This document shows, one piece after another, positions 29,289 to 54,048 of a DNA stretch of 64,000 nt. The notes under the pieces were generated by a model, which did not search any database, was not told where the DNA came from, and saw only the letters and a program-made list of their open reading frames with translations. Source of the DNA: Eledone cirrhosa (lineage: Eukaryota); the NCBI GenBank assembly GCA_964016885.1, contig OZ024740.1, positions 293,198,001 through 293,262,000 on the forward strand, given 5' to 3'. The translations under genes were made by a program, and so were the position numbers. The number at the start of each line of letters is the position of its first letter. Position 1 is the first letter of the stretch.

Positions 29289-29476
29289 TAGGAAAATGTT
29301 CAAGACCCCGACGGCAGAGCTCCAGCCGTTGGAGTCCAGAAAAAGCCGTCGAAACGGCTCGAGCTCTGCCGTCGGGGTCTTGAACGTTTTCCTATTACCC
29401 ACTCTACTACCCTAAGTATTGAGTACTCTGGTGCGTTATGGTCCACCTGGTTCCGTACCACACTTCCTTCGTTTTC
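29289..29476. mobile_element. Family G foldback mini-element
   Basis: Inverted arms of gaccccgacggcagagctc; (TA)n flanks. Confidence 0.85.
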
Positions 29477-30884
29477 GTTTTATATATATATATATATATA
29501 TAATTATAATTGAACACAAAAGAAAAACGAACACAGATATATACATATATGTGTTCAAATCGTAAGGGACCAGATTCGCTAAGGTCAGTTAGTATTCTTT
29601 TCGCCATCTTTGGGGTGAGTAAATAAAAAAATAAGGCCAAGTGCAGTCCAAGATATACTATGGCTATAGAAAAAGATGAGATAGTCAAGGTTGGCACAGT
29701 TTCGATATTATATCTGGAATAAAAACAACAACAATAATTTCCCTTTACCTGGTCGCTTAACCGGTTGGAAGGAGCAGCTAAATCTCTCTCGAATTCCCAA
29801 GCAACTACTTCAAAAATTACATTCAAGAATATAGTCGCTGTTACGGCTATGACACTTTCTATCAATCTCCCAATCAATCACATTTGACACCAACAACTAT
29901 ATCAATAATTTAGTCATGTGGCTAAACAACAAAGAGCAACAATATCAACAGCCTCAACTAAAAGTCTACAATCCTTGTGAGTAATTCGAATGCTCTCATT
30001 TGCTTTTATAATTCCTTTTGCTCAATAATTAGCATTCATCTATTGCAATTTATCATTGGCAGACTACAAGATTACAACCTACTACTGTAAGATAAAGAAA
30101 CACAGGACAAGTATGATATGATAATAGTCTTATGGACAAATAAGAACGTCTCTATATAGTTTCTTGATTTGCATACCAATGTCCCTTACCACATACAATC
30201 ATCTTTAATAAAAAGAAAAAGCTATGTTTGACAACGGGATTCTCTATACATCATGGCTGTCCGAATAGAAAAGGCAGGATGGTCATGGCAGTATTGCGTT
30301 TAAAGCAGATCCTAATCGGTCAGGGCATACAGCTAATTGGTCAGGGCATACAACTGACTGAAGAAATTACAGTTTCACTAAAATTGATAAAACTGGGAAA
30401 GCCTCTATGGTGACGTTGGAACTGCTATGCATAATAGTCAAATAGCTCTCAATTCTGAAATAAGCACATGTAATCCCTTATATACAAATCGGTAGGATAG
30501 TTATGAGTAGAAAATATTTTAGCGTAGGTAGGTTCAGTGCTGACCTCCTAAAAGGAGCAGCCAAATATTAAAGAAAAAACAACATACCTTAAATTTAGAA
30601 GGATAAATTAGTCGGACAATGGGGTCCTATACACTCATCGAGACCAGTGACTGTTGAACAGCCTTTGCAAGCAAACAGCCTCATCAACACCACTGAAACA
30701 AACGGATAAGGTTGTCATCTAACATGTGGTGTTTATGAGGCTGTTTACCAGCAAACAAACCGAATACTAATAACATTATTATATTATTAAATCATTATTA
30801 TTTATTCACGAATACATATAGTTATCTACCATGATAAGGGCGAAAACAAATCTATATATTCACACACGTATATATATATGATAT

Positions 30885-32308
30885 ATACCTGATACTCAAA
30901 GACTTAGCAATGTCCAGTAGTGCTAAGTTTAATATTCTGATCGCAGACTTGGTACGAGTGATGAAGAACGTGTCTCGCATGTGCGACCCAACAGAAATGG
31001 AAATACACATCCAACACTTCATCAACCGCATGCAGTTCTCTGGCTACAACCAAAGAGACAGAATCAGAGTATACGAAGAAGCCATGGAGAAGTATAAGAC
31101 CCTCATAGAACTGGATATGAAAGGAATTTGCCCATTATACAGGAGAAAATCATGGAATAGCTTAGATATGACTAGACCTAAGATAGGGAAAGCCACCTCA
31201 TGGTACGACAACCAGAGATACCAGAGTGTCATGTTCGTGGATGCTACCCCTGGAGGGAAATTAGCTAACCAGTGTAGAAAGGCCCTGAGAAAGACCCACT
31301 TAAAGATTAAGGTGGTAGAAAAGCCAGGAACCACCATAAAATCCCTGATCAGCAAAACCTTTCCTTTTTAAGAAAACCCACTGTAATAATAGGAAATGTA
31401 TCATATGTAAGGTAAATCCCCGGATAAACTGTAAAACTAGAAACGTAGTCTATAGCATAAGATGTACAGAGGGTACTTGCAGAAACACGACAACAACATA
31501 GATAGGCGAGACAGCTCGTAGCATAGGTGAAAAGATAGATCAACACTGGGGGGAACTAAAAGGACGAAAAAACGGTTCAGTACTATACGAACATGCCAGA
31601 CAACAACACGACGGTAACATAGACAAAATAGAAATTAGACTAATATCTAAACATAGAAATGACCCAGCAGATAGGCAAATCAGAGAGGCCAGTGAAATAG
31701 TACTTAGAAGGCCAAGGCTAAACAGAAACAATGAATGGAATAACAACATCCAAACAAACAACACTGACCTAAGTGAAGTATAAATAAATAAATAAATAAA
31801 TAAATAAATAAATAAATAGATAAATAAATAAATACATACACAAGCACAATAACAAAAAACACATATAAACACACACTAGTAAACTAAGATAGAATACAAT
31901 AACCAATACACAGTCACCCAAACACGAACACACATCAAACAAAACACTATATACACACGCAAACGCATGCGCAGAGAAGACAACAAAATAAACATATAAA
32001 TAAATAAATAAACAGACTAAATAAAGATGGCGTAGGCATACGATGCAACGGGAGGAAACATAATAGCACCACTGACGATGTTGCAGATGTGCAACGAAAG
32101 AACTTTGATAGACTATATATATATGTGTTTGTGTCTATATTGTATCTGTATTTTTGACCGTTGGTCAGTCAATGGTAACATTGAGGACCGAATAAATTAA
32201 ATTAACCGATATAAAGGACACAGAAGCGAAAACCAACCAAACAGTGAGTGTGTTCTGTTATTAATTCTGGCAATATTATTACACAAATATGACCCTCCCC
32301 AAGTAAAA
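30885..32308 (+). mobile_element. 5'-truncated Neptune-like PLE (thumb, Cys-rich linker, GIY-YIG, pLTR); frameshifted
   Basis: ILIADLVRVMKNVS..MQFSGY..VMFVDATPGG, CNNRKCIIC..NCKTRNVVY..YIGETARS..H; HHR-like CTGACGA-tgttgca..tgcaac-GAAA near 32072. Confidence 0.9.
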
Positions 32309-32332
32309 CAATATATATATATATATATAATA

Positions 32333-32828
32333 TATAAGATCAAAAGATGGTTAAAAGAATTCCATGTATTTTATTATGCGCATTTCAAAAACAAATATCA
32401 TCATACAATAACATTTGTGTTTTCATCAGATAAAATAGGAAGACATGATATGAAGGTTAAAAAGCACCTGTGAATAGTGCAGTTTTAAATCAACATATGA
32501 AAAGTAGTTTTAGATTGATGTGTGACATTGGGAAGAAAATTTTTGAGGGGGGGGGGTGAAAAAGAGGAGGAGATGAGAGTAAAAAGTGGAGGGGGAGGAG
32601 TATAATGAGGAAGGATGAGATAGGAGGAGAAATGGGTGATAGAGAGAGAGAGATAGCTTTTATAACTGAGAAAAATATATTGTTTTACATAGAGAGGTTG
32701 AAATGCACATAATAAAATACATGGAACTCTTTTAACCATCTTTTGATCTTATATATTATGTATACTCCAGTCCTACAAACTGTAGAGTGCTTCTTATCCG
32801 ATATCTGCATTGCTTTATTGTACTACAA
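32333..32828. mobile_element. Second family B element with inverted ends
   Basis: Minus-strand HHR at 32367-32437 (CTGATGA..GAAA-tgcgca-TA). The right arm starts at gaaatgcaca (32700) and has the same tail as 9905-10050. Confidence 0.8.
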
Positions 32829-32890
32829 TAAAACTCACCTCCTACATATATATATATATATATATATATATATATATATATATATATATA

Positions 32891-33200
32891 TTGGTAAAAG
32901 GAAAAGAAAATGCTGACAAATTGTTCCCAGTGAAAAATAGTTTAATTAGGAATAAGTAAAAATTAGTAATAGTATTGGTTAGTATTCAGTTTTGGTTTTA
33001 AGTTTTACCGGTTGCGCATTTCTAATGCTTTTCAAAAATAATTTTGAGATAGAGCGCCCGTGATGTTTGCTCTAATCTGATTACTTTTGGAAATTCAACC
33101 TGTTTTATGTAAAAAAAAGTGGCTCCAGATGTATGAAAAAATTCTTGTGGTCAAAACAATTTTGATTGGTCGGTAGAGCTCATGTGAATGTTAAAAATTT
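32891..33200 (-). repeat. Family M pLTR-like remnant with a variant hammerhead at 33003-33038
   Basis: Minus strand TTGAAAA-gcat-tagaa-atgc-GCAA-ccgg-TA; matches 55610-55997. Confidence 0.65.
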
Positions 33201-52606: not shown

Positions 52607-52644
52607 CCTTTACCGGTTTCGCAGTTCTTCTGCTTTTCAAAAGT
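52607..52644 (-). ncRNA. Minimal hammerhead with U3-A8 core
   Basis: ctt-TTGAAAA-gcag-aagaa-ctgc-GAAA-ccgg-TA-aag. Confidence 0.65.
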
Positions 52645-52723
52645 AGAGTTGAGATGGAGGGTCTGTGTTTTTTCTCACATCTGAGATAAATATATAAACT
52701 TTCTCACATCTGACATAAATATA

Positions 52724-53022
52724 TAAACAGACTAAATAAAGATGGCGTAGAAAATACAATGCAACGGGAGGAAACAATAGCACCACTGACGATGTTGCAG
52801 ATGTGCAACGAAAGAACTTTGATAGACTATATATATGTGTTTGTGTCTATATTGTATCTGTATTATTTTTGACTGTTGGTCAGTCACTGGCAACATTGAG
52901 AACCGAATAAATTTAATTAACCGATATAAAAGACGCAGAAGGGAAAAGCGAAAACCAACCAAACTGTGAGTGTGTTCTGTTATTAATTCTGGCAATATTA
53001 CGCAAATATGACCCTCCTCAAG
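52724..53022 (+). repeat. Partial pLTR of the Neptune-like PLE
   Basis: Almost identical to 55192-55495. Confidence 0.9.
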
Positions 53023-53087
53023 TATATATATATATATATATATATACATATATATATATATATATATATATATATATATATATATAT

Positions 53088-53432
53088 TCTTCGGCCCCAT
53101 TCGGTCACGAATGACCATGGTTTTGCACCTAGAAAGTTTCCCTCCAAGGCACAAGCCTGGGCAAGTTTTTTTTGTGGAAGACCAGTAGTCGCCGCCCATG
53201 CATACCAGTCTCCCCTCTCCACGCCACCGATGTTGTTCAAGGGAAAGGCAATGGCAGATACAGCTTGGCACCAGTGGCACCAGTGGCACCAGTGATGTCG
53301 CAACTCATTTCTACAGCTGAGTAAACTGGAGCAACATAAAGTGTCTTGCTCAAGGACACAACGCATCACCCGGTCCGAGAATCGAACTCACAACCTCTCA
53401 ATTTCAAGCCCAAAGCTCTAACCACTAACCCG
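53088..53432 (-). mobile_element. tRNA-derived SINE (CORE-like head, different 3' body)
   Basis: gttcgattctc B box and gtgtccttgagcaagacactt. Confidence 0.8.
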
Positions 53433-53845
53433 TATGCTATATATATATATAGTGTGTAAAAATGAGTAAGCACACATAGCCAGCATCTGGCTACCAATCG
53501 ATTAATTTGTGAAATATATTTCTTTAATGGAATATATACGAGGAAGATTAATCATTTTATAAGGTATCTATTTTTGAAGTTCTAGTTAAACTTTATTTAG
53601 CTACCTACCTACCTAGCTATGTGTGCTTACACAGTTTTACAAATTATCCCCTGTGATTGTTTCATATGTTTATTTATATATCAATCAATTTCTACTTGAT
53701 ATATATATATATATATATATATATATATATATATATATATATATATATATATATATATATATATATATATATATATATATATATATGTTATATATATATA
53801 TATATATATTTATATATATATATATGTTATTTATATATGTATATA

Positions 53846-54048
53846 TAACAAAGGAATTGTGGTAAGGAAGCAGATGGACCATAACGCACCAGAGTACTGA
53901 ATACTTATGGTAGTCGAGTCGGAAATAGGAAAAAGTATGACCCCGACGGCAGAGCTCAAGCCGTTTCGACGGCTATTTCTTGACTACTAGTTCAGAAATA
54001 GCCGTCGAAACGCCGTGAGCTCTGCCGTCGGGGTCATACTTTTTCCTA
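53846..54048. mobile_element. Family G foldback mini-element
   Basis: Centre ctatttcttgacta-c-tagttcagaaatag. Confidence 0.85.

Follow-up and report, generated by a model that had tools for sequence, protein, structure and literature searches.

We have analysed here a family of short palindromic repeats, family G, within a window of 64,000 nt of the Eledone cirrhosa genome (contig OZ024740.1), the window being the whole stretch of DNA under study. Its family G elements, all lying within (TA)n, comprise five foldbacks, a sixth that has diverged and two single copies, and the sequence that a preliminary description had assigned to eight places was found at all eight when these were checked in the window. 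Positions within an element are given as x, the distance in nt from the 3' end of the arm, and the proximal copy of a foldback is the one next to the tail. The elements are:

3584..3642, minus strand: single tailless 5'-truncated copy starting at about x=57, adjoined by unique flank
21732..21927, minus strand: diverged relative, an old foldback of a related lineage with a tail-like extension and arms that have diverged from each other
29288..29477, plus strand: older-subfamily foldback with tail; end of the inverted copy at about 40 nt, start of the proximal copy at about 60 nt
40253..40476, minus strand: foldback with tail; the inner arm is duplicated, nested, around CACACAC at the centre
41468..41601, plus strand: single 5'-truncated copy starting at about x=57, with tail and without an inverted partner
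46088..46284, plus strand: reference foldback, made up of an inverted copy without tail (46090-46148, x=1-59), a single extra base (46149), the proximal copy (46150-46204, x=55-1) and the tail (46205-46284); predicted hammerhead cut between 46186 and 46187
51991..52152, minus strand: foldback with tail; internal deletion in the tail-proximal arm (about x=43 to 12)
53847..54049, minus strand: older-subfamily foldback with tail and a hot-zone centre

The sequence GCCGTCGAAACGGCT, allowing up to two mismatches, has 10 matches in the window as against 0 in 100 shuffles, and a near-perfect palindrome of 118 bp is present (fold z = -18). Alignment gives the five foldbacks five different centres, so that the claim of a different junction in each copy stands. 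On one side only, the elements also carry an 80-nt extension that is not palindromic (ATTACCCACTC...CCTTCGTT) and was absent from the earlier description; a family G element therefore has polarity. This extension refines the account of the two single arms, which are indeed single copies, but only the one at 3584 is tailless, that at 41469 having a tail. The sequence beyond the arm at 3584, tried as a possible parent, has no other match in the genome and is unique flank. Similarly, the element at 21732 is a relative of a related lineage as proposed, but is itself an old foldback with diverged arms.

The family G palindromes, of about 200 bases, derive from a Penelope-like retroelement (PLE) whose insertions have undergone extreme 5' truncation and in most cases lie head-to-head with another shortened copy. 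The arm and tail are part of a 3.54-kb unit with an intact 784-aa ORF, which bears out the suggestion of a retroelement source. The units stand in tandem arrays with a spacing of 3.53-3.54 kb and intact 784-aa frames, and within a unit the arm, the 'tail', the 5'UTR and the ATG follow one another without interruption, the arm being the final 55-62 nt of the pseudo-LTR and the one-sided 80-nt extension being the known PLE "tail". The motif is present both upstream and downstream of the ORF in 15 of 20 intact-ORF copies, as in a pseudo-LTR. Three of the first 30 copies, an unbiased sample, have no foldback and share sequence upstream, and in long copies RT-like and GIY-YIG-like ORFs lie upstream of the arm; RT candidates number 45,146 genome-wide. 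The motifs read by eye in the 784-aa frame are FDIESYYASI, LYRDDGLL and FLDVTLDL, then CNCPDRSICPLDNRC, VIYQCNV..AYIGLTAC and RLYQHRH, which together with the nearest Atlas clusters (GIY-YIG and RVT_1) indicate a single ORF with RT followed by a GIY-YIG endonuclease. Pfam found no RT or GIY-YIG domain in the window ORFs or PLE ORFs, a PDB sequence search with the PLE ORF gave no match, and a homologue search with it gave 650 relatives of about 700 aa, none of those listed having an informative name (the few given were 'hypothetical protein' or a gene identifier); the assignment of the parent as a probable PLE thus rests on the eye-read motifs, the Atlas neighbours and the anatomy. A Helitron or Helentron-like reading (terminal hairpin, AT target) was dropped after the retroelement parent was found.

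The exact tail 33-mer occurs at 16,653 places genome-wide, and foldbacks in which both inner 17-mers are exact and the centre is 0-40 nt number 6,535. We characterized 100 copies, an unbiased sample from the first 42 Mb of one contig, the exact tail 33-mer being required. Their 3' end is fixed and their 5' truncation varies as a continuous series. In 75 of them, but not in the other 25, there is an inverted partner that has no tail and is truncated independently. The 5' ends of the proximal copies extend from within the tail to more than 440 nt (five of the 100 continue beyond this), with 56 at x=53-66, none at 67-82 and seven at x=18-19; inverted-copy ends fall at x=53-66 in 39 of 75. In 61 of 75 the inverted copy has its outer end at x=-1 and hence no tail; full-length copies, whose inverted partners are hundreds of nt long (L262, L264, L266-L268, L271), show this outer end too. 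The tail is normally on the proximal copy only, although one copy (L124) is tailed on both sides, and it is missing in 9 of 30 long copies. Nearly all copies examined have (TA)n flanks, which mask any target-site duplications. Subfamily markers are concordant between the two arms in 51 of 59 foldbacks (0.34 expected under random pairing), the shorter arm of asymmetric junctions lies on either side about equally (27 versus 24), and among the 75 junctions 33 have an overlap and 13 are blunt. Some foldbacks have symmetric ends at rare positions (18/18, 83/82, 15/17), and the centre CTGGACGCAG is common to 8 of 30 copies across three subfamilies. We also observed a centre triplicated in tandem (L100) and two copies with chimeric arms (L140, L175).

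Single copies that have no partner stop in the same zone as the foldbacks (L155, L180, L196, L200, L210), and the stops therefore look like template ends and not like turn-round sites. There is a second class of stops, which is sharp and coincides exactly with the predicted ribozyme cut. By hand count among 97 listed sites, 12-13 of the 22-23 TA-flanked single copies that start at x=12-30 do so exactly at x=18, and none starts at x=14-17 or 19-22.

The arm is the 3' two-thirds of a hammerhead-shaped motif in the pseudo-LTR, which is predicted to be the ribozyme of the element. Within the window there is no CTGANGA-GACGGC half, as had been noted; the two matches with up to two mismatches, of which one is simply the GAAA arm, are in line with the 1.0 expected by chance. 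Longer copies have the missing 5' half exactly where it was predicted, as ACCCC-[U/C]UGANAA followed by the helix II 5' strand, which agrees with the earlier view of the arm as the 3' part of a hammerhead-type motif. The parental gacccc-CTGAnGA-gacggc was anticipated correctly as to the existence of a parent with a 5' half, but not as to its core, which is UUGANAA (U3-A8) in 35 of 35 motifs of the 20 intact-ORF copies, with N7 alone varying (G in 31, U in three, C in one), while in another abundant lineage, which has nevertheless been amplified, 26 of 30 copies have CUGAGAA (C3 opposite A8). A canonical C3-G8 core was found neither in the intact-ORF copies nor in the CUGAGAA lineage. The exact parental patterns as first proposed, CTGANGAGACGGC..GCCGTCGAAACGG, and GACCCCCTGANGAGACGGC with up to one mismatch, occur at 0 places in the genome; the real parent has another core and another 5' strand of helix II.

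The GAAA, the A15.1-U16.1 pair and the GUC are all present in the motif, and helices I, II and III are seen both in the MFE structure of a 131-nt stretch and in an RNAalifold consensus built from 15 copies, in a predicted type-I three-way junction with unpaired strands of 7, 3 and 1 nt. In helix III, a stable 5-bp stem is closed by a 9-nt loop containing the palindrome GAGCUC, and loop II is about 35 nt. The 131-nt fold is no more stable than shuffles (z = -0.03), and the copies, which are too alike to show compensatory covariation, have one-sided compatible changes only (GC to GU, AU to GU), with two-sided changes at 0 of 24 pairs. At E<=10 the Rfam hammerhead models match neither the foldback nor three long copies nor an intact tandem unit, and at the gathering threshold they have no match on the window, although RF00163 does detect 18 canonical motifs elsewhere in the genome. 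Spurious weak hairpin and low-score miRNA-model matches were also seen at E<=10. By hand count, x=18 ends are about as frequent from the CUGAGAA lineage as from the U3-A8 lineage, the latter accounting for half of those ends and for about the same share of the remaining short single copies; an RT stop at the base of helix III fits this as well as cleavage does. As a control, a repeat of this genome with a canonical hammerhead, 'family H', has about 12 TA-flanked truncated copies, of which about 3-4 start at the cleavage site and about six start 3-6 nt upstream, a pattern that is confounded by an AT-rich loop.

The nature of the junctions suggests several models for how the second arm arises. 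The earlier proposal was that nascent cDNA folds on the self-complementary stem II of the hammerhead and primes its own second strand, stem II being the cause of the inversion. At least one arm ends by stem II in all five foldbacks of the window, x=53-66 is indeed a hot zone for both copies, and the symmetric ends at rare positions suit turn-round of some sort. The statement that all copies invert in stem II does not extend further, as junctions are also found far from it, some within the tail and others upstream at more than 200 nt and up to hundreds of nt, and in the foldback at 29289 the distal arm stops about 40 nt in, outside stem II. No hot-zone foldback includes the native 5' strand of stem II (about x=96-107), and the expected product, a distal copy reaching to about 107 with a proximal copy starting from about 41, is observed in 0 of 75. 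A self-copy should moreover continue through the tail, whereas the inverted copy mostly stops at x=-1, and the partnerless copies stop in the same zone as the foldbacks. We conclude that the turn sits in loop II beyond the 3' strand, that the 'stem II' complementarity of a foldback is a product of the inversion, and that turn-round at the 5' end of the template RNA is the likelier cause, priming on stem II being very unlikely. What does hold is that palindromes are produced repeatedly with new junctions. Another reading is a class II foldback MITE, a transposase-driven DNA transposon whose inverted arms are long and whose centre mutates fast after insertion through hairpin nicking, repair of centre breaks or replication template switching. 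The near-perfect palindrome with its stable fold, the TA-rich target, the high copy number, the shared centre CTGGACGCAG and the tandem triplication at L100 would all suit such an element. We regard it as extremely improbable, given that the arm and tail are contiguous in a retroelement unit, that the truncation series is continuous with a fixed 3' end and a quarter of copies have no partner, and that full-length copies adjoin inverted partners of hundreds of nt. The shared centre spans three subfamilies, the outer ends are not mutual inverted repeats because the tail is one-sided, and the partner found is a retroelement, no transposase partner having been seen. One fixed junction with TIR/TSD ends, as in a true DNA MITE, is at odds with the truncation series and the one-sided tail.

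A more serious contender is twin priming, in which both 3' ends of the broken (TA)n target would prime reverse transcription on RNA from the same source, one at the end of the tail and the other at an internal CCUAUUA site, with the two cDNAs joined at their 3' ends by microhomology or bluntly. In L1 twin-priming inversions and in self-primed hairpin second-strand cDNA synthesis, an inverted segment arises during target-primed reverse transcription, and the junctions vary, showing microhomology or a small number of added bases, as do those of family G. The arms of family G differ in that they duplicate one template segment and do not partition it, in that the outer end of the inverted arm is fixed, and in that about three quarters of insertions are affected. 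That outer end, GTTCCTAT abutting (AT)n, is a genuine 3' end in 9 of 30 parents and in about 8 of 19 full-length copies, and the equal placing of the shorter arm, the chimeric arms (L140, L175) and the overlapping and blunt junctions are likewise as twin priming would give. It accounts poorly for the concordance of the arms, which is far above that of independent templates, for the ratio of tailless to tailed ends (about 61:1 in inverted copies versus 9:21 in single parents), and for symmetric ends at rare positions, which are commoner than independent stops allow; we consider twin priming doubtful.

We favor a model, to which we assign a probability of about 0.8, in which the palindromes are dead, extreme 5'-truncated PLE insertions in (TA)n, with the partner likely made anew at each insertion by the reverse transcriptase turning round at the 5' end of a short template RNA. 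Reverse transcription would reach this end and then reverse. The template of the second arm would be either the first cDNA or the same RNA, and the arm would be taken up by the opposite side of the target where TA microhomology is first met, at x=-1. Both classes of stops would be 5' ends of template RNA, with that at x of about 59-62 perhaps a transcription start or processing site and the exact x=18 class perhaps a product of hammerhead cleavage. Two observations sit less easily with turn-round, namely that spacerless junctions are impossible by simple intramolecular self-priming, and that two independent cDNAs fit the placing of the shorter arm on either side as well.

The anatomy of family G is already known for Penelope-like elements, and family G is a further element of that kind. 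Craig et al. (2021, PMC8557442) describe PLEs as 5'-truncated, with an inverted and likewise 5'-truncated copy adjoining their 5' end, a tail on one side and a (TA)n bias. The parent shares with the Neptune, Nematis and Penelope-Poseidon type PLEs in that account, which have a C-terminal GIY-YIG, a single ORF with RT then GIY-YIG, Cys/His inside the GIY-YIG core and a Cys-rich motif just upstream, and family G shares with PLEs partial tandems, pseudo-LTRs, strong 5' truncation and a hammerhead motif in the pseudo-LTR. This likeness is drawn from ORF motifs and anatomy, the ORF not being scored by Pfam models. The tail differs in length (80 nt versus the 30-40 bp given there), and most family G copies are just 140-200 bp and MITE-like in look, unlike the PLEs described. 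Cervera and de la Pena (2014, PMC4209133) report PLE hammerheads with a U3-A8 core, an unpaired 5' nucleotide on a long helix II and a helix I of 4-5 bp, and motif pairs on opposite strands 100-700 bp apart. The family G parent and the Schistosoma Cercyon PLE of that report both have U3-A8 in place of C3-G8, and the type-I topology in the pseudo-LTR, the helix I of 4-5 bp and a roughly 8-bp helix II that begins 5' with an unpaired nucleotide are also alike. In contrast, helix III is a stable 5 bp with a 9-nt GAGCUC loop and not the 1-2 bp of the minimal, dimer-dependent PLE hammerheads, and the long loop II, the escape from Rfam detection and the abundant lineage with C3 opposite A8 depart from them as well. 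Family G also resembles the animal non-LTR retrozymes, which Li et al. (2026, doi 10.64898/2026.07.22.740005) present as short non-autonomous derivatives of PLE pseudo-LTRs with hammerhead sequence; those consist of tandem repeats in which the ribozyme is complete, and circularisation has been suggested for them, whereas family G copies are dispersed inverted dimers without the ribozyme 5' half. A literature search on PLE-derived foldbacks or MITE-like palindromes found nothing on this point.

PLEs are abundant in invertebrates, yet according to Craig et al. (2021, PMC8557442) their insertion route is still undefined, and their tandem and inverted repeats, one-sided tail and hammerhead role lack a tested mechanism. 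The Eledone cirrhosa genome offers tens of thousands of minimal insertions with both breakpoints readable to the base, and counting these could address the template ends, cutting by the ribozyme and the copying of the second arm from the first. Copies of this type are also liable to be mis-annotated as MITEs or microRNA-like hairpins. A broader reading, tentative and in our estimate more apt to fail than to hold, is that the more than 16,000 junctions may record, as fossils, where Penelope template RNAs had their 5' ends. The sharp class at GUC/G would then reflect in vivo cleavage by a U3-A8 hammerhead with a stable helix III, the cleaved RNA being reverse-transcribed, the class at about 59-62 nt would mark a second RNA start in the pseudo-LTR giving a SINE-like template of 140 nt, and the Penelope enzyme would turn round at template ends. 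If this joint reading is true, the long-unexplained inverted pseudo-LTRs would be accounted for.

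Family G elements are retroelement insertions in which, as shown here, two inverted copies have been truncated independently and which have arisen anew many times. Inspection of the eight places in the window (foldbacks at 29289, 40252, 46089, 51990 and 53846, single arms at 3584 and 41469, and a diverged relative at 21732) confirms the sequences reported in the preliminary description, including the absence of a CUGANGA half from the window and five distinct centres for the five foldbacks; the arm motif GCCGTCGAAACGGCT occurs 10 times in the window at two or fewer mismatches, and not once in 100 shuffles. 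The palindrome had been described correctly, but its polarity was missed: every family G element consists of a ~118-bp palindrome (AGGAAC...GTTCCT) and, at just one of its ends, a conserved extension of 80 nt that is not palindromic (ATTACCCACTC...CCTTCGTT), with (TA)n surrounding the whole. In 30 genomic copies 94-100% identical to the window copy, the arms and extension are conserved and the centres vary, and subfamily-diagnostic changes in one arm are complementary to the other arm.

The parent element was recognized from copies lacking a foldback. In three of the first 30 sampled copies the arm runs on upstream into shared sequence, with ORFs containing RT-like and GIY-YIG-like motifs farther upstream. 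Searching the 3.0-Gb genome at the protein level with the RT piece yielded 45,146 candidates, many with intact ~784-aa frames and some in arrays at 3.53-3.54 kb spacing. Two such arrays have the arm directly continuous with the extension, which leads through a 5'UTR to the ATG that opens the 784-aa frame, and the extension is thus the start of the next unit, the 'tail' of a Penelope-like element (PLE); this contiguity within a tandem ORF-bearing unit bears out the proposed retroelement source. The frame contains, in order, FDIESYYASI, LYRDDGLL, FLDVTLDL, a Cys-rich stretch, VIYQCNV..AYIGLTAC and RLYQHRH, and from these motifs we read it as a putative RT with a C-terminal GIY-YIG domain with Cys/His residues in its core. 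Pfam and PDB searches with the ORF gave no match, and none of the homologues listed by protein search had an informative name; Atlas neighbours carry GIY-YIG and RVT_1. Family G agrees on every point with the PLE anatomy published by Craig et al. (2021, PMC8557442), in which copies are strongly 5'-truncated and form partial tandems, an inverted 5'-truncated copy adjoins the 5' end, the tail is confined to one end and the targets are (TA)n.

Other retroelement-like sequences lie in the window:

2-1723, plus strand: frame resembling the family G parent's RT and endonuclease
7227-8303, minus strand: frame of the same kind
37549-38472, minus strand: ORF matching the endonuclease/exonuclease/phosphatase domain Exo_endo_phos_2 (E = 1.7e-13)
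49209-49751, plus strand: weak RVT_1 match

The first two (e.g. KFIQLDIANYYSSI; LKDHKPNF..RLIAPSRSDLG) have no Pfam match, are too divergent from the family G parent to match at the DNA level, and probably represent other Penelope-like lineages. The third encodes a LINE AP endonuclease. We also note a long minisatellite of ~36-nt repeats (YQYYQSTTLAWCQTL...), open in several frames, beside a Penelope-like copy elsewhere in the genome (locus L147, 5073-7001).

Long copies read, from 5' of the arm through the arm, ACCCC-[U/C]UGANAA-G.UCGGCUA...(~35-nt loop)...UAGCCGUC-GAAA-CGGC(UUGAGCUCA)GCYG-UC|GGGGU, in the order helix I, seven-base core strand, helix II (one base close to its 5' end being unpaired), GAAA, helix III and GUC site, and a type-I three-way junction is obtained both by MFE folding and as the RNAalifold consensus. 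The missing parental 5' half is present where it had been predicted, but with a core of UUGANAA or CUGAGAA rather than CUGANGA. The CUGAGAA core is found in 26/30 copies of one lineage, and UUGA-N-AA in all 35 motifs from 20 intact-ORF copies, where position 7 is the sole variable core base (G 31, U 3, C 1). Cervera and de la Peña (2014, PMC4209133) describe PLE hammerheads in which U3-A8 replaces C3-G8, helix II is long and has an unpaired base at its 5' end, and helix I is short, as well as opposite-strand motif pairs 100-700 bp apart. Counting against hammerhead membership, none of the 24 pairs has compensatory covariation among the closely similar copies aligned, and the Rfam hammerhead models do not score the motif at E<=10, although RF00163 does match 18 canonical motifs above cut-off in another repeat of this genome. 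We conclude that the family G arm derives from a hammerhead-type motif, which is predicted to be self-cleaving.

The exact extension 33-mer occurs at 16,653 genomic places, and foldbacks in which the two inner 17-mers are exact and the centre measures 0-40 nt number 6,535. Breakpoints were mapped in the first 100 places with the 33-mer, a selection blind to the arms that spans 42 Mb of one contig and takes in only copies with the exact 33-mer. Positions (x) count bases upstream of the arm/extension boundary, x=1 being the last T of GTTCCT, and derive from HSP ends accurate to a few bases.

Position of the 5' end of the proximal (tail-adjoining) copy, sample of 100 copies
Inside the tail: 4
x=1-17: 10
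x=18-19: 7
x=20-52: 13
x=53-66: 56
x=67-440: 5 (none at x=67-82)
Beyond x=440: 5

An inverted partner is present in 75 copies, and its inner ends are similarly spread, with 39/75 at x=53-66. The claim that all copies invert within stem II is not borne out as it stands: just over half of the ends of either copy lie in that zone, and the remaining proximal ends range from inside the tail to beyond x=440. In 61/75 the inverted copy terminates on its outer side at x=-1, tailless, and one sampled copy (L124) has a tail on each side; inverted partners of full-length copies extend for hundreds of bases with the same tailless outer end. The longer arm is the proximal one in 27 foldbacks and the inverted one in 24, with 24 equal, and the junctions comprise 33 overlaps, 13 blunt joins and 29 with inserted bases. 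The varying centres agree with the proposal that palindromes were produced repeatedly. Two individual loci are peculiar. At the centre of the L100 foldback, ahead of the turn, CTGGACTAATT is directly triplicated, as though one 11-base stretch had been copied three times by a slipping or jumping polymerase. At L180/L181 (G000:C1:27009350-27010639), with two tails 257 bp apart, a copy from x~61 is fused directly to the first ORF codons of an upstream copy, resembling a jump off the 5' end of one template into the interior of a second.

We infer that the breakpoint stops would reflect 5' ends of template RNA. One class falls where the ribozyme is predicted to cut: among 97 listed TA-flanked copies starting within x<=31 (pattern search, sorted by eye and counted by hand), 22-23 are single copies with a start at x=12-30, and of these 12-13 begin at x=18 itself, immediately after GUC, and none at x=14-17 or 19-22. 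That these ends mark RT stopping at the base of helix III rather than cleavage is a live alternative; in the hand count, x=18 ends are about equally frequent in the C3/A8 and U3-A8 lineages. The class at x~59-62, which has a sharp upstream edge, also occurs in single copies and coincides with an initiator-like TTAGTC / TCAGTA, has the appearance of run-off where a second RNA would begin, with untemplated A addition, extra A/T being present at many centres. Among the 20 intact-ORF copies (L258-L277), those with an adjoining inverted partner have forward 5' ends clustered at x~129-192 (L259, L262, L267, L268, L271), upstream of the entire hammerhead and possibly at the main transcription start.

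Self-priming of nascent cDNA on stem II, as originally envisaged, is not supported, because foldbacks turning in the stem II zone do not take in the native 5' strand (the ~107-to-~41 junction that it would give is seen in 0/75), single copies without a partner stop in the same zone, and the inverted copy stops at x=-1 and does not continue through the tail. The second arm may instead arise by a turn-round, copied from the first arm or from the same RNA, and this is favoured by symmetric junctions at rare positions and by concordance of two subfamily markers between arms in 51/59 foldbacks, against 0.34 expected under random pairing. Twin priming is the other candidate and would account better for the spacer-less junctions, the equal asymmetry of the arms and the few clearly chimeric arms (e.g. 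L140, L175).

A second repeat family (L031-L040; e.g. L032 ~1500-1545), in which the RF00163 matches lie, has a type-I hammerhead of canonical form (CCCTGATGAGTCCTAAATAGGACGAAACATTGTC|GGC). Its copies likewise end in (TA)n, and as some are foldbacks (L031, L037), head-to-head pairing is general for repeats of this genome that contain a hammerhead. PLEs, their hammerheads including U3-A8 forms, inverted truncated partners, tails and the (TA)n bias are already in print. Our literature search found nothing published on a base-level breakpoint spectrum or on a PLE hammerhead with a stable helix III and large loop II, and both the spectrum, with its class at the predicted cleavage site, and this predicted hammerhead form seem to be new. 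Foldback stretches such as window 46121-46175 give low-score Rfam microRNA matches (for mir-7640, 27 bits where the gathering score is 90), and family G palindromes could be mis-called as miRNA hairpins. The family G parent is a new, very abundant PLE, whose mini-insertions mimic MITEs.
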